Both the position numbers and the translations under genes were made by a program. Below, piece by piece: positions 11,978 to 21,404 of a DNA stretch of 64,000 nucleotides. The DNA is taken from contig JAYNJW010000008.1 in assembly GCA_038110535.1 (NCBI GenBank), positions 1,446-65,445 of the forward strand, read 5' to 3'. Origin of the DNA: Opitutia bacterium (lineage in GTDB: Bacteria > Verrucomicrobiota > Verrucomicrobiia > Opitutales > Seribacteraceae). The notes under the pieces are model-generated. The model was not told the DNA's origin and did no database searches. It was given only the letters and a program-made list of their open reading frames with translations. Within the stretch, counting starts at the first letter, position 1; every line of letters begins with the position of its first letter.

Positions 11978-14900
11978 ATGACTTTTCCAATCTCTATCAA
12001 TCGAGAACTTTTCTCCAGGATGGGATTGCTCTGTGCATTTCTGGTCGTCGTTCCATGTGCATGGGCCCAGTTTACCTTCGAACAAAAGTCCCAACCAGCT
12101 GGCATCTTTACGACGGTGTCCCAAACTTTTGAGGCTGATACTTTGGTATATTCTCAGTCGATCAACCTTGTTTCCGGTACCTATGTGTTTACCCATTGGG
12201 AATTAAATGATGTGCGGATGGACGACTCCGTGGGATCGGCCGTGACCAATTTAAAATTCAATATCGGTGAAAATACCGTGGCGGTCGCTCATTACCTTGA
12301 TAAATCGTTAGATTCGGATGGGGACACAATTCCGGATTGGTACGAATTGCGATATTTGGGCAACCTCGATGGGAACCAATCGCATGACAATGATGGGGAC
12401 GGCATATCTTTGCTCCAGGAGTATAGTTTCGATCTAAGTCCCAGTATTTCTGATCAATCCAAACCCGGGGGCATATCCCGTCGCCGTTCCCAAACTACCT
12501 TCGTAAATCTTGGTGGGGCCAGAAAACTTTCCATAAGTAGCGATCCCCGGGGCCTGTTGGCCTCTGAAATCACCTATCCGGAGGTTAACTCAACATTCGT
12601 TTCCACTAATTTATCCGGTGCGAATGGCAGTTATTATTTTTCCCACTGGGAAGTCAATGGTGTGCGTGTTGCCGATGAGGTGGGCATAGGACTGAGTAAG
12701 GTTGTTGAGGTCATGGATACCGATAAGCAGGTTGTGGCCAAGTATTTTGATCAGGATCAAGACGATGATTCCGATGGAATTCCTGACTGGTACGAATGGC
12801 ACACCTTTGGAACCCTGAGCAACGACAAATCTTCCGATTCTGACAATGATTCGATCCTATTATCGGAAGAACGAAAATTTGGTCTCAATGCGGCTATTAG
12901 CGACTCGTTAAAACCCGGGGGGATATCACGTCGGCGTTCAGCAACGGTTGCGGTCAACCTAGGCGGGGCAACCCGGGTCAGGCTTTACAGTCAGCCCACC
13001 GGCTTGATCCCTTCCCAAACCCTCTTCCTCGAAAACAATTCCACTTTTTCCACCGAGACCCTCTCTGGCTTGTCGCACGGTTATTATTTTTCTCATTGGG
13101 AGGTAAACGGTCAGCGAATGGCTGATTCCACAGGAATTGGCTTGGGTGCCGCTCAGACCGTCCTGGATGCAAGTAAGGAAATCGTGGCAAAGTTTTACGA
13201 TCAGGACGAAGATCTTGATGCCGACGATATTCCGGACTGGTTTGAATGGCAGCAATTCGGAACCCTTTCTTTTGGCGAAACATCCGATCCTGATGGGGAT
13301 GGTATACCTATCCAAGTAGAGAGGGTTTTTGGAATGAGCAGCGTGATCGCCGACCAGCTTTCTCCGGGTGGTCTGTCGCGCCGAAGGTCCACTAGCACAT
13401 CCTTTGTCTTTGACCCTGCGGGAGTAGTAGACAGTGATGGCGACGGGCTTTCGGACGACCTTGAAAATTCCTTGGGAACCAATCCAGAGCTCGCCGACAC
13501 TGACGGTGATGGATATGACGATGCAGAAGAGTATGCACTAGGAACGGATCCCACCTCCGCCACATCTTTGCCCAACCAACCGCCATCCAACCTTGTACCG
13601 ATCGATCAAGGTCTCACCATTCTTGAAAATCGTCCGGTTGGTACTGTCGTGACCCAGTTTCAAGCATCTGATGCGGATGGGGATCTGATTACTTTTTCCC
13701 TAAGTGCTGGCAACGGAGATGGAGACAACGCGCTTTTCTCTATTGATAACAACGGGACCCTGCAATCCTTAGCCGTTTTTGACTACGAGTTAAATGCTTC
13801 CACCTTTTCTATCCGAGTTTCAGCAAGTGATGGCAACCAGGGAGTTGTGGAAGGCAACTTTACCATTTATCTGCTCGATGTCGATGACACTCCTCCAGTA
13901 CTTCTACTAAATGGAGATGCGAACATAACCCATTTGGCTGGATATCCCTACTTCGATGCCAATGCAACTTGGATGGATGAAGTGGATGGAAACGGAACGA
14001 TTTCGGGAAGTGGAGAAGTTAATGCCACAGTGCCGGGTAACTACCTTCTTTCTTATACCTACACGGATGAGGCAGGCAATACCGCCCAGACCGCTATCCG
14101 GGAAATTGAGGTAATCAATCTTCCGCCGGAAGATTTGTATGTTTTGAACGATGCTCCTTTGAGTATCTTGGAAAATGAGCCCAATGGTACGAAGGTGGCT
14201 GTCTTTTACGGAAGTGACCAAAATCCAGACAGTATATTGTCCTACCGCTTGATGGACTTTTCAGATTTGAATCATTCATTTGATCCAAATATGACGGAGA
14301 ATAATATCTCCGAGTTGCAAGCTTTGAACATTTTTCGTTTGGACGAAAATGGAGCACTTTTCACCTTACGACCGCTAGATTATGAGATTGATCCGAAAGA
14401 AATTCCAATTCTTGTCCGGGTTACAGATCAGCATGGTGCACACTTTGAAAAACTTTTTATCGTGTCGGTCGCCAATGTGGTGGAAGATTTTGATGGAGAT
14501 GGGGTGGAAGATTATTATGACCCTGACGATGATGGCGATGGTTATGAAGACAATCTCGAAGACGAATACGGGTTCAATTCTTTGGACAGGTGGCATTACC
14601 CAGAGGCACCCATCATCAGAACTCTGAAAGTCGAAGAGCACAACCAGACATTGGTATTCAGGGCCCATATCCTATCATCCGGGGGAGTGGGAAATATGGA
14701 AGCAGGCATATCGGTCTTTGATGAATTCGGTGCTTTTATCCATGAGTCCAGCACTTCTTGGAAGGATACCGACGAAGAAATTTTGTCTTTCTCACTGGCA
14801 GGCTTTGTTGGAGGACAGAAAATACGCTACCAGGCATTTGCCCACAATTTAGCTGGCGGAACAACCGGGCAATTCCTTGAATACCGGGTTGGGGGAAATG

Positions 14901-15208
14901 CGGACTTTGGAAAGTGGTGGTCTGCCGATAAAGAATTGGAGGGTGGGTGGAGAGAATCTACTTGGCTGGGAACTTACTTGCCAAATCAGGAAAATGAGTG
15001 GGTCTATCATCTTCAACTTGGTTGGCTTTTTGTTCAGCTTGATGGCCAAGGTGGTTTATGGATGTGGATGCCTGAAGAAAAGTGGTTGTGGACAAAGCAG
15101 GGGGTCTGGCCTTTCTTGTGGTCGGATGCGACTGCCGGTTGGTTATATCCGATTTATGTTTCGGGAAATCGATACTTTTACGATTACAGCAACGAAGGAA
15201 TTCGGTAA
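11978..15208 (+). CDS. giant secreted repeat protein: 3 x 150-aa modules, TSP3-like Ca-binding repeats, two cadherin-like domains, an Ig-like domain and a Trp-rich C-terminus
   Basis: The ORF is open from 11924. The ATGs at 11978 or 12020 precede signal-like GLLCAFLVVVPCAWAQ. DxDxDGxxDxxE motifs (DSDGDGLSDDLE, DTDGDGYDDAEE), and cadherin-like ILENRPVGTVV...ASDADGD...FDYE and ILENEPNGTKV...LDYE. Confidence 0.8.
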   Translation: MTFPISINRELFSRMGLLCAFLVVVPCAWAQFTFEQKSQPAGIFTTVSQTFEADTLVYSQSINLVSGTYVFTHWELNDVRMDDSVGSAVTNLKFNIGENTVAVAHYLDKSLDSDGDTIPDWYELRYLGNLDGNQSHDNDGDGISLLQEYSFDLSPSISDQSKPGGISRRRSQTTFVNLGGARKLSISSDPRGLLASEITYPEVNSTFVSTNLSGANGSYYFSHWEVNGVRVADEVGIGLSKVVEVMDTDKQVVAKYFDQDQDDDSDGIPDWYEWHTFGTLSNDKSSDSDNDSILLSEERKFGLNAAISDSLKPGGISRRRSATVAVNLGGATRVRLYSQPTGLIPSQTLFLENNSTFSTETLSGLSHGYYFSHWEVNGQRMADSTGIGLGAAQTVLDASKEIVAKFYDQDEDLDADDIPDWFEWQQFGTLSFGETSDPDGDGIPIQVERVFGMSSVIADQLSPGGLSRRRSTSTSFVFDPAGVVDSDGDGLSDDLENSLGTNPELADTDGDGYDDAEEYALGTDPTSATSLPNQPPSNLVPIDQGLTILENRPVGTVVTQFQASDADGDLITFSLSAGNGDGDNALFSIDNNGTLQSLAVFDYELNASTFSIRVSASDGNQGVVEGNFTIYLLDVDDTPPVLLLNGDANITHLAGYPYFDANATWMDEVDGNGTISGSGEVNATVPGNYLLSYTYTDEAGNTAQTAIREIEVINLPPEDLYVLNDAPLSILENEPNGTKVAVFYGSDQNPDSILSYRLMDFSDLNHSFDPNMTENNISELQALNIFRLDENGALFTLRPLDYEIDPKEIPILVRVTDQHGAHFEKLFIVSVANVVEDFDGDGVEDYYDPDDDGDGYEDNLEDEYGFNSLDRWHYPEAPIIRTLKVEEHNQTLVFRAHILSSGGVGNMEAGISVFDEFGAFIHESSTSWKDTDEEILSFSLAGFVGGQKIRYQAFAHNLAGGTTGQFLEYRVGGNADFGKWWSADKELEGGWRESTWLGTYLPNQENEWVYHLQLGWLFVQLDGQGGLWMWMPEEKWLWTKQGVWPFLWSDATAGWLYPIYVSGNRYFYDYSNEGIR
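12041..13390 (+). repeat. three tandem 150-aa (450-bp) coding repeats, diverged at DNA level
   Basis: PGG(I/L)SRRRS recurs at aa 181, 331 and 481, an exact 150-aa period. So do YYFSHWEVNG, VAK(Y/F)(F/Y)DQD and IPDW(Y/F)EW. Confidence 0.9.
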
Positions 15209-15263: not shown

Positions 15264-15647
15264 TTATTCCACGCCTATGTCAGAAAGGCTGATCTCTTGG
15301 GCATCTTTCCAGAGGTGTTCGAGAGCATAATTTTCCCGTTGTTCTTGGGAAAATAGATGAACCACAAAATCAATCGCATCCAAAATTAACCAACCTCCAG
15401 GCTTGAACCTCTCCCGGGATAAGGTTTCCACCGCATTCTCTTTGAGGGTTTTTTCAAGGTTGTCCCGAAGTGCCTTGAGGTGGGGGTCGGAAGTGCCGGT
15501 AGCAATAATAAAGCAGTCTGTCAGGGGAGAATGTTCACCGAAATACAGAAGCCTTACATCCTCGGCCTTCTTATCAAGTAAAGAATTACAGGCAAGTTTG
15601 AGGTTTTGTTGAAGTTGTGACTTGGACGGGGGAATAACATTACTCAT
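15264..15647 (-). CDS. rsfS: ribosome silencing factor RsfS (iojap-like)
   Basis: 127 aa. DCFIIATGTSDPHLKAL and DFVVHLFSQEQRENYALEHLW are typical of RsfS. It lies downstream of nadD, the conserved pairing. Confidence 0.93.
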   Translation of the reverse strand: MSNVIPPSKSQLQQNLKLACNSLLDKKAEDVRLLYFGEHSPLTDCFIIATGTSDPHLKALRDNLEKTLKENAVETLSRERFKPGGWLILDAIDFVVHLFSQEQRENYALEHLWKDAQEISLSDIGVE

Positions 15648-15662
15648 GCAGCGAATTTTATT

Positions 15663-16268
15663 TTATGAGGAAACAAGATTATGATTGCGTATGTAGGAAG
15701 CTACTTCGCGAGGAATGGAGGCACCAGGCAGACGATTGCATCTGAGCTGCGCACGGATTTCAGAGGAAGAAAGATGGATCAGTGAATTATCCATAAAAGA
15801 AAAACGAAGGTTCTGAATGCCAGGTTTGCGCAGGTGGCTGCTCTGTCTGGCGAAGACCAGAAAGTGTACCAAAGTGGCGAGCAGATCCACCTTTTTCCAT
15901 TCCGCCAATCGGGAGAACTGATCATCTCCAAGAATAAAAAAAAGTTCATGGTCGGGGAACTGGGATCTGACCTCCTCAATGGTCTCATAGGAGTATCGCG
16001 TCTTGGCGTGTTTAATTTCAGCATCGTAGGCCTCCATATGAGAATGGTCCTGGCAAATTTTCTTAACCATAGAAAGCCGGTCCAAGGCAGAAAAAAAAGC
16101 TGGTTCAGTACGTAAGGGGGCCTGATGTGCCGGACAGAAAAGAAGCTTATCCAGCTGGGCTTTTTCAATGGCAATCTTGGCAATTTGCAGATGTCCATTG
16201 TGGGGAGGATCAAAAGTACCCCCAAAAAAGCCGAGTCGTGGTGTTCGAGGATTCAGCAATTTTCCCAT
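15663..16268 (-). CDS. nadD: nicotinate-nucleotide adenylyltransferase
   Basis: GFFGGTFDPPHNGH motif. ATG at 16268 (MGKLLNPRTPRLGFFGG). The track ORF extends to 16361 but that stretch overlaps the upstream gene. Confidence 0.93.
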   Translation of the reverse strand: MGKLLNPRTPRLGFFGGTFDPPHNGHLQIAKIAIEKAQLDKLLFCPAHQAPLRTEPAFFSALDRLSMVKKICQDHSHMEAYDAEIKHAKTRYSYETIEEVRSQFPDHELFFILGDDQFSRLAEWKKVDLLATLVHFLVFARQSSHLRKPGIQNLRFSFMDNSLIHLSSSEIRAQLRCNRLPGASIPREVASYIRNHNLVSS

Positions 16269-16275
16269 GTAAGCC

Positions 16276-17631
16276 TCAAAAGGCACGACCGGCGGACTTT
16301 TCAAACAAGGTAAACATCCTGCCTTTTCTGAAATAAGTGACCTGGCCGGAAGAGGATACAACCAACGCTATTGAATTGGTTGCATGGGAGATGGCCGCAG
16401 CGGCTACATGTCTCGTTCCCAGTCCTCCTGGCAGGACAATGTTGTCCGCTTTTGCCTGAATTAAACTCCCTGCGGTTTCCACCACACCATTTCCCCGGAC
16501 GATGAAAGCACCATCAATCAAAGCCAGCTCTTTGATGGTTTCATCCATGAATGGATTGAGAATATTTCGATCTTCTTCCTCATAGCCATGAAAGGGGTTA
16601 AGAATGAGTTGCTTGGATCGTTTGTATACCTCCTCATGGTCACCCAGAATAAACATGGCACCGATGGACTTCCCTTCGCGGCCGGTCAGGGCGAGATCGG
16701 TGGCAATTGCAGTAAGCCGTTCCAATGCCTCCGCAGAGACTCCGCTCGGGAGCATGTCTTCTTCGTGTCCGATAACAGACTCAAATTCCTCATCCACATC
16801 GACGACCAGAACGGTGTCGAGCTGTCCACTCTGGGGGATACCGCCGATACAACATACGCGGTCTTTGAAGCCAAATATTTGGCGGGTCAGGCCAAGAAGT
16901 ATAGCAGCCCTGAGCTGGGATAGTCTCGAATTAGAAACTGCACGAACGGCCAGTGCTGCGTGGGCCCGGTGATGATCGAGTTCATGCTCGGACACGCCCT
17001 CTCCGGCTAGCACTACCCGGAAGCCCGGAAAGGTCATGCGGGGAGCCAGGGATGCGGGGAATGCATCCGTGAACACTAAAATGGTCGAGCAATCTGCAGC
17101 TTTGGCAATTTTTGCGGCTTCATCAGTGAGCAATTTATTAAATTTAGTACGCCTTCGGGCAGGCCTTTCATCGGTTCCCGCAAAGGCGTGCCGCACCACA
17201 GTCTTAAAGTCGGACAAATCACGGGCCATCCAAAGATGGTCCATTACGGATTTGTCCTGAAAGGTACGGGCAAGGGTGGCGAGGAAAGACAGGTAATTCT
17301 TGGCGTTCTCGTTGGCGAGAAGGAGGAAAACATACCTGATCTCATCGTAACTTCCCTGACCGCTAAAGGATAGACCAGTGGGACAGCGACCAATGGCCAA
17401 CGCAAATGGTCTTTTCATTTTTACGCGGGCATGGGGCAGGGCGACACCTTCACCCAAATAGCTGGTGATGGCATGTTCCCGGGTGATTAATTCATCCAGG
17501 ACTTTCTTGCGGGTACGGGGAGAAGGGAGCAGGGCTTTGAAGGTTCCAAGTAATTCGGAGTAAGCGGCATTCAGATCCTGATGAGACAGGTCAATCACTC
17601 TGCTAGACGAAATGTAGCGATCTATTCGCAT
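16276..17631 (-). CDS. three-domain protein: PTS EIIA type-2 (PtsN-like) + PK_C-like + DisA_N/diadenylate cyclase (CdaZ-like)
   Basis: aa 1-150 contain GEGVALPHARV (EIIA-2 phospho-His context) and VFLLLANEN. aa 165-285 follow the pyruvate-kinase C-terminal-like pattern (CSTILVFTDAFPASLAPRMTFPGFRVVLA...GFKDRVCCIGGIPQSGQLDTVLVV). aa 310-440 form the DAC domain (GAMFILGD, LIDGAFIV, GGLGTRHVAAAAIS). Confidence 0.8.
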   Translation of the reverse strand: MRIDRYISSSRVIDLSHQDLNAAYSELLGTFKALLPSPRTRKKVLDELITREHAITSYLGEGVALPHARVKMKRPFALAIGRCPTGLSFSGQGSYDEIRYVFLLLANENAKNYLSFLATLARTFQDKSVMDHLWMARDLSDFKTVVRHAFAGTDERPARRRTKFNKLLTDEAAKIAKAADCSTILVFTDAFPASLAPRMTFPGFRVVLAGEGVSEHELDHHRAHAALAVRAVSNSRLSQLRAAILLGLTRQIFGFKDRVCCIGGIPQSGQLDTVLVVDVDEEFESVIGHEEDMLPSGVSAEALERLTAIATDLALTGREGKSIGAMFILGDHEEVYKRSKQLILNPFHGYEEEDRNILNPFMDETIKELALIDGAFIVRGNGVVETAGSLIQAKADNIVLPGGLGTRHVAAAAISHATNSIALVVSSSGQVTYFRKGRMFTLFEKSAGRAF

Positions 17632-17696: not shown

Positions 17697-18071
17697 TTAC
17701 TTTTCCCACTCCAACGCTCCGCTCTTTAATTCGTAGATCAGCCCGACTACGAGCACAAAGGTGAAAAAAAGCATGGGCCCGAGCAAGGAAACTCCGGCAA
17801 AGGAAAGCTCCCGATGGGTAAGAACCCAAGGGATCAGAAAGACCACATCGATATCAAAAAGAATAAATAACATCGCGGTTACATAGAATTTCACGGAATA
17901 TCGTGAACTTCCCCCAACCTCAGAGGATAACCCGCATTCATAAGGGGAATCCTTGATCTTGCCTCGGGTGGCTCTTTGCCCGAAAAGATGGCTGGCCACC
18001 AAGATACCAACTCCGATCCCAACCGCGAGCACGATTTGGATAAGCACGGGCAGAAAATCGGGTAAAGTCAT
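17697..18071 (-). CDS. nuoA: NADH-quinone oxidoreductase subunit A
   Basis: 124 aa. PYECGL...YSVKFYVTAMLFILFDIDVVFLIPW is the NuoA/ND3 signature. Confidence 0.9.
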   Translation of the reverse strand: MTLPDFLPVLIQIVLAVGIGVGILVASHLFGQRATRGKIKDSPYECGLSSEVGGSSRYSVKFYVTAMLFILFDIDVVFLIPWVLTHRELSFAGVSLLGPMLFFTFVLVVGLIYELKSGALEWEK

Positions 18072-18187: not shown

Positions 18188-18622
18188 ATGATTACATTGA
18201 CCGATCTTCGTAGAAATAAGTATTCCAAACAATCACGGGTCCGAGGTTTTACTCTGGTGGAAATCTTAATTGTTCTTGCACTAATCGGAATCGTTGCAGG
18301 TTTGGCGATGTCAAACCTTGGAGAAATCTTCGGAGGGGGAAAGGTCAAGGCCGCACAGACTTGGGTGAATAGCACGGGAGAAGCCTATGTGAACAGCTAC
18401 CTTGCCATGGTTGGAGATTATCCCAAAAGCCTTGCCGATCTGAAAAATCCGCCCAATGGTGTGCCTCCATTTGTTAAGCGGGCTTCCGATTTAAAGGATC
18501 CATGGGGTAAAGATTATGTTTATCAGTATCCAGGGGCAAGAAACACGGGAAGCTTTGATTTGTCGACCACGGCACCAGACGGTACGGTTTTAGGAAACTG
18601 GGACGACGCCACTGGCAATTGA
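18188..18622 (+). CDS. gspG: type II secretion major pseudopilin GspG
   Basis: Prepilin motif RG|FTLVEILIVLALIGIVAGLA (Glu at +5). C-terminal DPWGKDYVYQYPGARNTGSFDLSTTAPDG is typical of GspG. AGGA Shine-Dalgarno 7 nt upstream. Confidence 0.92.
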   Translation: MITLTDLRRNKYSKQSRVRGFTLVEILIVLALIGIVAGLAMSNLGEIFGGGKVKAAQTWVNSTGEAYVNSYLAMVGDYPKSLADLKNPPNGVPPFVKRASDLKDPWGKDYVYQYPGARNTGSFDLSTTAPDGTVLGNWDDATGN

Positions 18623-18623
18623 T

Positions 18624-19151
18624 TTGATTAAAAGGGGAAGGATCCAGCGATTCGATGGGTTTACCCTCATCGAAGTGTTATTGGTTCTTGCACTGGTGGG
18701 GGTTTTGGTAGGTTTGGTAGCTGGTAATGTAGGTGCATTTATTCGGGGTGCCCAGTTCGAACCCCCTAGTCGAGTTTTGAAAAAAGCCATTCTTGATGCA
18801 ATTTACGAAGCATCGGAAAGTAAGGAACTGATCCATCTCACTTATATCCAAGAAACGGCAACTTTTAGTGTATCTAGTAAGCATGGTACTGAAATAAATT
18901 CACACCAAATATTTAAAGGCACGAGGGAGGACAATTACGAGTTGCCTGAAATTATTTTTAAGGCGATTGGACCACAATCCGGGCCCGATGGAGATTCAAC
19001 TATTTATGATGAGGATGAATTAGTCCAAGCCAGAATATCATTTCACTATGGAAGTAGTGTGCCCTTTTCTGCTGAAATCCGATTCATGGACGAAACGGAG
19101 GAGTTGCAATTCGATCCATTTTCCGGATTTGTTATAAAGCGACAAGAGTGA
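18624..19151 (+). CDS. gspH: minor pseudopilin (GspH-like)
   Basis: Prepilin motif DG|FTLIEVLLVLALVGVLVG. 175 aa. Position directly after gspG. Confidence 0.75.
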   Translation: MIKRGRIQRFDGFTLIEVLLVLALVGVLVGLVAGNVGAFIRGAQFEPPSRVLKKAILDAIYEASESKELIHLTYIQETATFSVSSKHGTEINSHQIFKGTREDNYELPEIIFKAIGPQSGPDGDSTIYDEDELVQARISFHYGSSVPFSAEIRFMDETEELQFDPFSGFVIKRQE

Positions 19152-19657
19152 ATAAAAACTGGCACTGTTCTGAAAATAGCTTCATTCGAGGCTTTATGCT
19201 GATCGAGGTACTTATTGCCTTGGCCCTCTTTGCTTTGTCTGCGGTTATACTAGTAGATGGTGCTTTTGTAACCTCAAGAGTTGCTATGCAAATGAAAGAT
19301 ACCCGGGAATTAGAGCAAGATTTGATATGGGTTAGGAGTGAGGTATTGAAAATTGCAGATTATGAAAAATTTTCGGATGGTGGAGATTTAGAAACTTTGT
19401 CTATGGGAATGGTCTCGTGGACAGCTGTTGTCGAGATGACGGAAGTTTTGGACCTTTTTAAAGTTGTTCTTCGTTTAGAATATGATGGAAACGACGATTA
19501 TGGAATTGAGCCGGGCGAGCGTGAGTCGGCCATGTATTTGTGCCGACCAACTTGGGGAAGTCACCCCGATTTTTCCTCAGAGCGTTTGGGATTAATCGAA
19601 GAAAAGCGAAGAAAAATTCAAGAGCATCAAGATCAGAGAAAGCAAGCTAAATTATGA
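19148..19657 (+). CDS. gspI: minor pseudopilin (GspI-like)
   Basis: Prepilin motif RG|FMLIEVLIALALFALS. 4-nt overlap with the upstream gene. Assigned by gene order. Confidence 0.7.
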   Translation: MNKNWHCSENSFIRGFMLIEVLIALALFALSAVILVDGAFVTSRVAMQMKDTRELEQDLIWVRSEVLKIADYEKFSDGGDLETLSMGMVSWTAVVEMTEVLDLFKVVLRLEYDGNDDYGIEPGERESAMYLCRPTWGSHPDFSSERLGLIEEKRRKIQEHQDQRKQAKL

Positions 19658-20367
19658 AGCTTTTGAGGGGGTTCTCTTTAATTGAAGTTTTACTTGCACT
19701 TGCATTGGGGGGGATCCTTCTGATTGCAGCAAGTTCACTTCTGGTAACCATTTCTCAGGCATGGGCAAATCGTCCTGCAACTCGAGATGCGTTCGATGCT
19801 CATGTTAATGGTATTGCTCATTTTTTGACTGCAGTATTTGAAGAAGCGACTTACCCGAATGAAAACTCCCAAAATGTTGGGGGGGTTGAACTGCAAAGGC
19901 CCGTTGGTTTTTCAGATAGGGAAGATCCAATGATAAAGTTTTTTTTACCAGAGGCCCCACCTTTTTTTTATTGGCCTTACGGACCCGCAAATCGGGTTCA
20001 CTCGTATCTATTTTTTGAGGAAGCTGAGGGTTTATTTTTTTTATGGTATTCTGAGCTTCAAGAGCTGGAAAAGAGCGAAAATGGCGAGATGCAACTAGTC
20101 GATGAAGGACAACTATTTAGAACTCAAATTAGTACCTATTTGGATGAGGTGTATTACTGTTATTTCGGAGATGAGGATGACAGTCTCGATGATCAAAAAA
20201 GTTGGAACATACTTACTGATCTTGAAGAAAATGTGGAAACAGGCCAATTCAGAGTCCCAGATTTTATAAAAATGGTTTTTCGATGGGAGGAGCAAGATCT
20301 GGAACGGACAATTACATTGGCAATAAAAAAACCTGCTCCAAGCGGAATCGAGGAAGAACCAAGATGA
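19654..20367 (+). CDS. gspJ: minor pseudopilin (GspJ-like)
   Basis: Prepilin motif RG|FSLIEVLLALALGGILLIAASS. 237 aa. 4-nt overlaps on both sides. Confidence 0.7.
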   Translation: MKLLRGFSLIEVLLALALGGILLIAASSLLVTISQAWANRPATRDAFDAHVNGIAHFLTAVFEEATYPNENSQNVGGVELQRPVGFSDREDPMIKFFLPEAPPFFYWPYGPANRVHSYLFFEEAEGLFFLWYSELQELEKSENGEMQLVDEGQLFRTQISTYLDEVYYCYFGDEDDSLDDQKSWNILTDLEENVETGQFRVPDFIKMVFRWEEQDLERTITLAIKKPAPSGIEEEPR

Positions 20368-21404
20368 AAACGATGAGTAAGGTTAAAAAAAGGGGTGCAA
20401 TACTCGTATTTGTCTTAGGACTGGTCGTACTTTTGGGAACTTTGTGCCTGCGCCTAATGAAGGAAACGGTTCAGGAGCTTCGTCATTTTAGTCAATTTCA
20501 CAAGAGGGATGATTTGCGCTTACATGCCTATTCCTTGCTAGATATTACTGTTGGTGTGCTGAATGAATTTCGCACCTTAGACGGTAATGTATTAAAAACG
20601 GGGAGTGGGTGGGAGAATCCTATTGCATGGAGTGGTTTGCCAACACTTGACCCAAAAGTGGAGTGGTCGGTATCCCTTAAAGGCGAGTCGGGAAAGCTAC
20701 CTTTGTTCTCAACAGAGCCGAAAATATTGAAAGAGATCTTTGCGATCATGCATGCTGGTGGCAGGGGATTAGTAAATGAGGATGAAGGCCAGTCCTTTTA
20801 TGATGCATGGATGGACTGGCAAGATGAGGATCAAAATGAGAGAGAGGAAGGAGCAGAAGATGCCTATTATGAGAGCATGAATCCTCCTTACTATACTGCT
20901 GGAAAAAAGGTAAAAAGTTTTAAAGAGTTTCGCATGATCAAAGGATTTGGTTACGATCCAAACAATCCATATGAAAGTGGCTTGTTTTTTGATGAATTCG
21001 GTAACGAAACTGAAAACATGAGAAATTTTCGATCATCCTTTTCTTTTTATCATGAAGGAAAAGTCAATATTTGTGAATCATCACCTTTTCTTCTTGGTTA
21101 TATTTGCGATGATGATGAGTCTCTAATGCAAGAGGTAAGTGAATGGACTCCAGGTGATGGGCAAAACTTTCCGGCGATCGATAGTACCATTCCATTTACC
21201 AAAGGAATAAGTGAGACTTTTTTGATTGAGATACTTGTAAGAAAGGGGCGAGCAAAATTTAAACTGCATGCTGCTGTAACTTTTGCAAAAGAGCCGAATC
21301 AATCCAAAGCGAACAACTTAAAAACTCGGAAGAAGCGTAATGAGCAGTTAAAATATCCAGTGAGTGTTCTTAGGTTGCGTGAAAATGAGAATTTGATCGA
21401 CTAG
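20364..21404 (+). CDS. gspK: minor pseudopilin GspK
   Basis: Start MKTMSKVKKRG|AILVFVLGLVVLL with no Glu at +5, as in GspK. YDAWMDWQDEDQNEREEGAEDAYYES...FKEFRMIKGF matches the GspK DW-x-D...GAE...Y...EL-x-x-V-x-G pattern. ATGA overlap with gspJ. Confidence 0.85.
   Translation: MKTMSKVKKRGAILVFVLGLVVLLGTLCLRLMKETVQELRHFSQFHKRDDLRLHAYSLLDITVGVLNEFRTLDGNVLKTGSGWENPIAWSGLPTLDPKVEWSVSLKGESGKLPLFSTEPKILKEIFAIMHAGGRGLVNEDEGQSFYDAWMDWQDEDQNEREEGAEDAYYESMNPPYYTAGKKVKSFKEFRMIKGFGYDPNNPYESGLFFDEFGNETENMRNFRSSFSFYHEGKVNICESSPFLLGYICDDDESLMQEVSEWTPGDGQNFPAIDSTIPFTKGISETFLIEILVRKGRAKFKLHAAVTFAKEPNQSKANNLKTRKKRNEQLKYPVSVLRLRENENLID

Follow-up and report, generated by a model that had tools for sequence, protein, structure and literature searches.

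Archaeal cyclases of the DacZ/DacY type (CdaZ) share a core in which a DacZ_P domain, similar to the pyruvate kinase C-terminal domain (PK_C), is combined with a catalytic DAC domain, and active DacZ-type enzymes are known from H. volcanii, P. yayanosii (PyaDAC), M. jannaschii, and M. maripaludis (PMC6741144, PMC12699388). CdaA (DacA) of Firmicutes, the main or sole housekeeping cyclase, carries a homologous DAC domain with DGA and R-H motifs, reads RHR and S-E-E where these are canonical, has three N-terminal transmembrane helices of its own, and is regulated by CdaR and GlmM. A further class, named 'DacD' after Corrigan & Gruendling 2013, has members in Lacunisphaera limnophila, Puniceicoccaceae, Coraliomargarita, Opitutae, and Verrucomicrobia (Braun et al. 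2019, PMC6741144). From a different field, PtsN (EIIA-Ntr) of Proteobacteria belongs to a permease-less regulatory branch of the phosphotransferase system (PTS), acts on partner proteins, and has a theme in K+ homeostasis that overlaps with that of cyclic di-AMP (c-di-AMP). Here, we analysed a 64,000-nucleotide stretch of DNA (hereafter, the window) from a marine Opitutales (Verrucomicrobiota) bacterium, in which a single gene, dac, encodes an EIIA domain, a DacZ_P domain, and a DAC domain in one protein. Work on c-di-AMP and on the regulatory PTS, both of which exert major control over K+ and osmolyte homeostasis, has usually been done in different phyla; at this locus the two are joined in one polypeptide, and through the fusion a PTS without transporters probably controls c-di-AMP.

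The features of the gene are as follows, with Pfam scores where these apply:

16276..17631, minus strand: dac gene (EIIA_2-DacZ_P-DAC), 451 amino acids (aa), ATG to TGA; sole DAC gene of the genome
17197..17511, minus strand: PTS_EIIA_2 domain, aa 41-145 (65.6 bits, E 6e-18)
16780..17133, minus strand: DacZ_P domain (PF21755), aa 167-284 (45.8 bits, E 5.7e-12)
16318..16692, minus strand: DAC (DisA_N, PF02457) catalytic domain, aa 314-438 (68.8 bits, E 4e-19)
17431..17433, minus strand: His67 codon CAT, predicted phospho-acceptor from conservation in homologs
16507..16515, minus strand: DGA motif, aa 373-375 (GAT GGT GCT), conserved in fused representatives
16405..16413, minus strand: R407-H408-V409 (AGA CAT GTA), at the canonical RHR position

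All three domain matches exceed the Pfam gathering thresholds (PTS_EIIA_2, PF00359, 27 bits; DacZ_P, 27.4 bits; DAC, 27 bits), the DAC match spans profile positions 3-118 of 119, DacZ_P lies directly N-terminal to it, and the three-domain pattern in the open reading frame at 16276-17631 is far beyond chance. This architecture had been proposed in an initial annotation of the window, whose reading frame, motifs, and coordinates all proved exact, among them the EIIA motifs GEGVALPHARV (aa 60-70) and VFLLLANEN (aa 101-109) and the DAC motifs GAMFILGD (aa 324-331) and GTRHVAAAAIS (aa 405-415). Its suggestion of a DacZ/CdaZ relationship is likewise borne out, both by the DacZ_P domain and by the best NCBIfam match, haloarchaeal DacZ (NF041371, E 9e-28, aa 240-439)—although a score of 97.3 bits, against an equivalog cut-off of 430, makes the protein a relative and not an ortholog of haloarchaeal DacZ. 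Compared with the archaeal enzymes, the protein is bacterial, carries an additional N-terminal EIIA_2 region of about 150 aa, and has nuoA as its genomic partner where archaeal DacZ has mscS (PMC6741144).

The full-length AlphaFold2 model, computed from an alignment of 54 family members, was confident (mean predicted local distance difference test score, pLDDT, of 91.7; predicted template modelling score, pTM, of 0.69). When compared with the PDB using Foldseek, the N-terminal domain resembled crystal structures of EIIA-Ntr/PtsN with a target-normalised template modelling (TM) score of about 0.8, and the EIIA fold covered about aa 1 to 150, wider than the Pfam span; phmmer matched the same domain to the PtsN entries 4gqx/3urr at E 1e-7. 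The C-terminal domain resembled the cyclase domains of CdaA, CdaM, and DisA (target-normalised TM score 0.6-0.68). For the DacZ_P domain, which was modelled alone from the aligned translations of 45 fetched loci (pLDDT 84, pTM 0.79), the best 50 PDB matches were pyruvate kinases without exception (50/50; E from 5e-6, about 115-135 aligned columns, query-normalised TM score 0.48-0.63). The model indicates a fold like that of the pyruvate kinase C-terminal (effector) domain, so the PK_C-like middle domain of the initial annotation stands at the level of fold; at the level of sequence, however, the match is to DacZ_P, and Pfam PK_C gave none in the cyclase at E < 0.1.

We found the family to be widespread. 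A word-index search returned more than 1200 homologs, whose taxon-bearing names are Verrucomicrobiota, Opitutae, Opitutales, and Puniceicoccaceae, other names giving function only ('diadenylate cyclase', 'DisA.../mannitol/fructose-specific...'), and among the 120 listed homologs, 113 carry the same three Pfam domains in precomputed annotation; the remaining seven entries are shorter and mostly fragmentary. A scan of 185,579 species genomes placed relatives in at least 567 of them; the best 80 of these are without exception full-length, and almost all bear the label Opitutia or that of some other verrucomicrobial taxon (Puniceicoccaceae, Coraliomargaritaceae, Opitutaceae, Lacunisphaera, Nibricoccus, and Cephaloticoccus were represented). 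Two loci with other labels, L016 (a Polaribacter sp. metagenome-assembled genome) and L086 (an uncultured Enterobacteriaceae metagenome-assembled genome), hold an Opitutia-type nuoA-dac pair with full-length proteins of 51% and 40% identity, and are probably mis-binned contigs. When 1.84 billion cluster representatives were searched exhaustively with phmmer, 2075 relatives were recovered (265 with E < 1e-30), and from the best 150 representatives we took the 84 fused (three-domain, down to about 26% identity) and 46 unfused DacZ_P-DAC sequences used for the motif counts below. One distant three-domain representative comes from Spirochaetia, and among the two-domain representatives, screened by composition and cluster name, those that are named come from Planctomycetota only. 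Several representatives—P0146 (714 aa), P0228 (531), P0233 (569), P0199 (680), and P0225 (702)—have 80-370 extra N- or C-terminal residues and constitute additional architectures around the EIIA-DacZ_P-DAC or DacZ_P-DAC core.

Matched by architecture and by the taxa listed in PMC6741144, the EIIA_2-DacZ_P-DAC family is very probably the 'DacD' class, of which the protein is one more ortholog, its sole peculiarity being Val, not the usual Ala, after R-H. The novelty implied by the initial annotation does not hold, given that the architecture is class-wide and already in databases. Nothing sets the cyclase apart as a new kind of system: its family is widespread, already catalogued, and experimentally untouched, and the protein is an ordinary representative whose value is that of a test case.

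That peculiarity bears on whether the DAC domain works, for the initial annotation had taken RHV as a reason to doubt activity. The query, reading R-H-V, indeed lacks the canonical RHR with all three residues; the motif was shown to be essential by a triple substitution to AAA, in which the second Arg was not singled out (PMC3328451). Across the clade, the residue that follows R-H is non-Arg in 77 of 84 fused and 43 of 46 unfused DacZ-type representatives (position 409 in the fused set: A 43, T 15, Q 8, R 7, E 3, V 2), and 115 of the 120 close homologs have Ala there, with Val in the query alone. The third residue of RHR is, therefore, not a defining feature of the DacZ clade. D373, G374, R407, and H408, on the other hand, are present in all 84 fused representatives (A375 in 81) and are near-invariant in the 46 unfused ones, which contradicts the possibility, also raised in the initial annotation, that orthologues uniformly lack catalytic residues; their retention across such divergent members points to purifying selection on catalysis. 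With position 409 free clade-wide and R-H and D-G-A essentially invariant, the reading of RHV as the mark of a degenerate cyclase was rejected. The S-E-E-T-G segment of CdaA reads S-x-S-T/S-G throughout the DacZ clade, and the loss of the CdaA Glu224-type residue was accordingly rejected as a lesion specific to this gene. Ser426 and the motifs specific to the clade (E316-G-R-E-G320, N345-P-F347, and K367-E368) are invariant as well, and S-x-S-T/S-G, EGREG, and NPF occur alike in the query and in unfused DacZ_P-DAC relatives. To judge from this conservation, the dac gene product is in all likelihood a catalytically active cyclase.

The EIIA domain retains the features expected of a phospho-acceptor. 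The context G-x-A-x-P-H is present as GVALPH67, with R51-E52 upstream, and the spacing from Arg51 to His67 is the same as that from Arg57 to His73 in E. coli PtsN. His67 is kept in all 111 close homologs that cover the position and in 77 of the 84 diverse fused representatives, and Arg51 (75 of 84) and Glu52 (82 of 84) are both found in every covering close homolog. The designation of His67 as a phosphorylatable residue in the initial annotation is, thus, upheld as a prediction, in that the active-site His, Arg, and Glu are conserved.

We then asked what the genome, a 2.29-Mb draft of 189 contigs that is 94.9% complete, encodes around such an acceptor. Family searches found DAC and PTS_EIIA_2 domains in the dac gene only and no PTS_EIIC domain anywhere in the genome. 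Enzyme I (EI), HPr, and HprK/P are each represented by one protein scoring above its curated cut-off: a PtsI-type EI of 590 aa (TIGR01417, 556 bits), encoded convergently with HPr on contig C7 (EI at 13054-14826, HPr at 14857-15150); an HPr of 97 aa (TIGR01003, 87 bits) with GVHARPA (His15) and KSIMG (Ser46); and an HprK/P of 322 aa (327 bits). With neither EIIC nor a second EIIA_2 domain encoded, the PTS of this bacterium is a permease-less regulatory relay whose sole detectable EIIA_2-type acceptor is the cyclase. In the window's order, EIIA_2 was present in 11 of 11 sampled genomes, with a 450-462-aa frame in at least 8, and the fused domain was the only EIIA_2 in 4 of the 11.

The initial annotation had specified coupling to the nitrogen PTS, and this proposal survives in part—EI, HPr, and HprK/P are present and the EIIA_2 domain is the only one, but the relay is not of the PtsP/PtsO/PtsN type. 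EI can be aligned to PtsP only over positions 169-738 and consequently has no GAF domain, HPr scores under the NPr cut-off and carries Ser46, HprK/P is present, and the EIIA domain reaches 38.7 bits against the PtsN equivalog cut-off of 138.7 (TIGR01419); on these features together, a PtsP/PtsO nitrogen PTS was rejected. The EIIA domain of the query shares its fold and Arg...His spacing with PtsN, and differs from it in being fused in cis to an enzyme and in standing downstream of PtsI-type EI, Ser46 HPr, and HprK/P where the PtsN system has PtsP/NPr. On contig C27 (10898-12637, plus strand), hprK itself is located directly downstream of a gene that, by appearance, is a candidate lptB-like ATP-binding cassette ATPase gene. 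In Proteobacteria, the genes rpoN-hpf-ptsN-rapZ-npr occupy the corresponding position after lptB.

Candidate parts downstream of the cyclase are also encoded. Of the components that the initial annotation had suggested looking for, c-di-AMP phosphodiesterases have two candidates, a PgpH-type protein of 830 aa (7TM-7TMR_HD plus HDIG) and an NrnA-like DHH/DHHA1 protein of 333 aa, both putative c-di-AMP degradation enzymes. RCK_C (TrkA_C) domains number seven in four proteins. Judged by length and sequence, the four resemble TrkA, a Kef-type antiporter, a K+-channel-like protein, and a DASS-type transporter, and they are candidate targets.

Taken as a whole, the model of an active DacZ-type cyclase, the sole one in the cell, gated by HPr-dependent phosphorylation of His67, is one that we consider reasonably probable. 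Two DAC domains would meet head-to-head and form c-di-AMP from two ATP, and phosphate would be transferred from phosphoenolpyruvate (PEP) to EI, from EI to His15 of HPr, and from there to His67 of the EIIA domain, making the cyclase the terminal acceptor of the relay within the EIIA_2 family; phosphorylation of HPr at Ser46 by HprK/P would block the step from HPr to His67. The pyruvate-kinase-C-like DacZ_P domain probably binds a metabolite, which would make it a second sensor domain, and the phosphorylation state of EIIA and the DacZ_P ligand may then change the head-to-head pairing of DAC domains and so set c-di-AMP synthesis. In this way, PEP/pyruvate and glycolytic state would set c-di-AMP, which should in turn affect how the cell handles K+ and osmolytes; phosphorylation may either raise or lower the activity of the cyclase.

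Several observations weigh against this model. His67 is replaced by N, R, Q, or S in seven of the 84 fused representatives (P0131, P0136, P0140, P0146, P0180, P0199, and P0205), and because these retain DGA and RH, phosphorylation at this site is, judging by their sequences, dispensable in some lineages. The equivalent of PtsN His120, aa 113 (17293-17295), is Tyr in the query and in every covering close homolog (117 sequences including the query), and His in 53 of the 84 diverse members. The absences from the genome are provisional, since it is a 189-contig draft, and that of EIIA-Glc and EIIA-Man in particular comes from a coarse tblastn with E. coli Crr and ManX as queries. The ydaO/c-di-AMP riboswitch, which the initial annotation had also suggested looking for, was found nowhere in the genome at E <= 1. 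As for catalysis, the CdaA Glu224-type residue is absent from the whole DacZ clade, and the argument for activity of an enzyme with a non-Arg residue after R-H draws on conservation within the clade. A literature search found no experimental study of an EIIA-fused cyclase, that is, no assay of any family member.

The best-surviving alternative is that the cyclase is active and that its EIIA domain serves as a dimerisation, docking, or ligand-binding module instead of a phospho-acceptor. Regulation would then come mainly through DacZ_P or partners, and the targets of EI, HPr, and HprK/P would be other proteins. The seven representatives with Q, S, N, or R at His67 and intact DGA and RH fit this alternative, as do the conserved Tyr at aa 113 and the unfused DacZ_P-DAC relatives, which evidently function without EIIA. 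Against it, His67, Arg51, and Glu52 are retained in 92%, 89%, and 98% of diverse members, respectively, and in all covering close homologs, and a complete EI/HPr pair in a 2.3-Mb genome with neither a permease nor another EIIA_2 would be hard to explain without a recipient. We regard this alternative as unlikely, if worth keeping in sight.

It is improbable, in our view, that the protein is mainly a PtsN-like regulator, in which EIIA acts on K+ transporters or sensor kinases, the cyclase supplies or reports local c-di-AMP, and protein contacts carry the information no less than bulk c-di-AMP does. EIIA-Ntr/PtsN does provide the best structure and sequence matches of the N-terminal domain, TrkA and other RCK proteins are encoded, and any PtsN-like role would fall to the cyclase as the only EIIA_2 protein in the genome; however, the shortfall from the PtsN equivalog cut-off is large, and the sole conserved neighbour of the gene is nuoA. 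Finally, a catalytically dead DAC domain, acting as a degenerate sensor (the fallback of the initial annotation) or a c-di-AMP/ATP-binding protein, would account for RHV and for the missing CdaA-type Glu after the catalytic Ser but is very improbable, as both differences are common to a clade that includes enzymes with demonstrated activity (PMC6741144, PMC12699388), D, G, R, H, Ser426, EGREG, NPF, and KE are invariant in very divergent members, and a genome with this as its only DAC domain retains a PgpH-type HD protein.

The genome offers an unusually clean case—one cyclase, one EIIA_2, EI, HPr, and HprK/P, and no permease. Verrucomicrobiota are abundant in marine, freshwater, soil, and gut habitats, and if PTS phosphorylation sets c-di-AMP in this organism, it would be the first c-di-AMP regulatory logic in the phylum.

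The genes that adjoin dac in the window are:

17697..18071, minus strand: nuoA, 124 aa (Pfam Oxidored_q4, 98 bits); conserved partner
15663..16268, minus strand: nadD, nicotinate-nucleotide adenylyltransferase-like (Pfam CTP_transf_like)
15264..15647, minus strand: rsfS, ribosomal silencing factor (Pfam RsfS, 92.9 bits)

These form an apparent four-gene unit, nuoA-dac-nadD-rsfS, with rsfS last, separated by gaps of 65 nucleotides (nuoA-dac), 7 nucleotides (dac-nadD), and 15 nucleotides (nadD-rsfS), and no terminator-like sites were found in its junctions on the minus strand. We compared the neighbourhood with 80 related loci by tblastn of the window's four proteins. A nuoA-like gene (46-77% identity) lies directly upstream and co-oriented in 63 of 71 loci, so the upstream gene, which the initial annotation had named simply as a neighbouring lone nuoA, is present and is also the one conserved partner. 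The tight succession of nadD-rsfS after dac that it described is real at this locus, but the linkage is local: the pair adjoins dac in 1 of 69 related loci with enough flank, among the closest relatives only, and at this frequency a functional link to the cyclase was rejected. The remaining neighbours vary from lineage to lineage.

By tblastn, the nuoA beside dac is the only copy in the genome, and the nuo operon on contig C10 (42285-54208) starts at nuoB and reaches at least nuoM at the contig end. Because it is a single copy and the operon begins at nuoB, this nuoA is the genuine complex I subunit A gene, displaced from the nuo operon, and for the same reasons it was rejected as a stray paralog. 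Its pairing with dac may be functional, by membrane docking or co-assembly, or may be a frozen operon remnant. NuoA has three hydrophobic segments; the cyclase has none at transmembrane level and is soluble. Compared with CdaA, then, which carries its own three transmembrane helices, the cyclase is a soluble protein with cytoplasmic sensor domains, encoded beside three-helix NuoA, so that docking on NuoA may be likened to the arrangement in CdaA. A combined scheme, in which a streamlined Opitutales PTS has been reduced to an input of the cyclase (a phospho-His67 switch) and the cyclase docks on NuoA of complex I, is decidedly unlikely on what we have; if true, one enzyme would integrate PEP/glycolytic state, the DacZ_P ligand, and respiratory-chain status.

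Two further observations concern the surroundings of the nuo genes. Immediately upstream of nuoB (C10, 38810-42019, plus strand) is a gene for a multi-pass membrane protein of 1069 aa with a cation/proton-exchanger-like N-terminus. Within the window, a run of prepilin-type (pseudopilin) genes diverges from nuoA (18188-21404, plus strand); with these genes a type II secretion operon begins.

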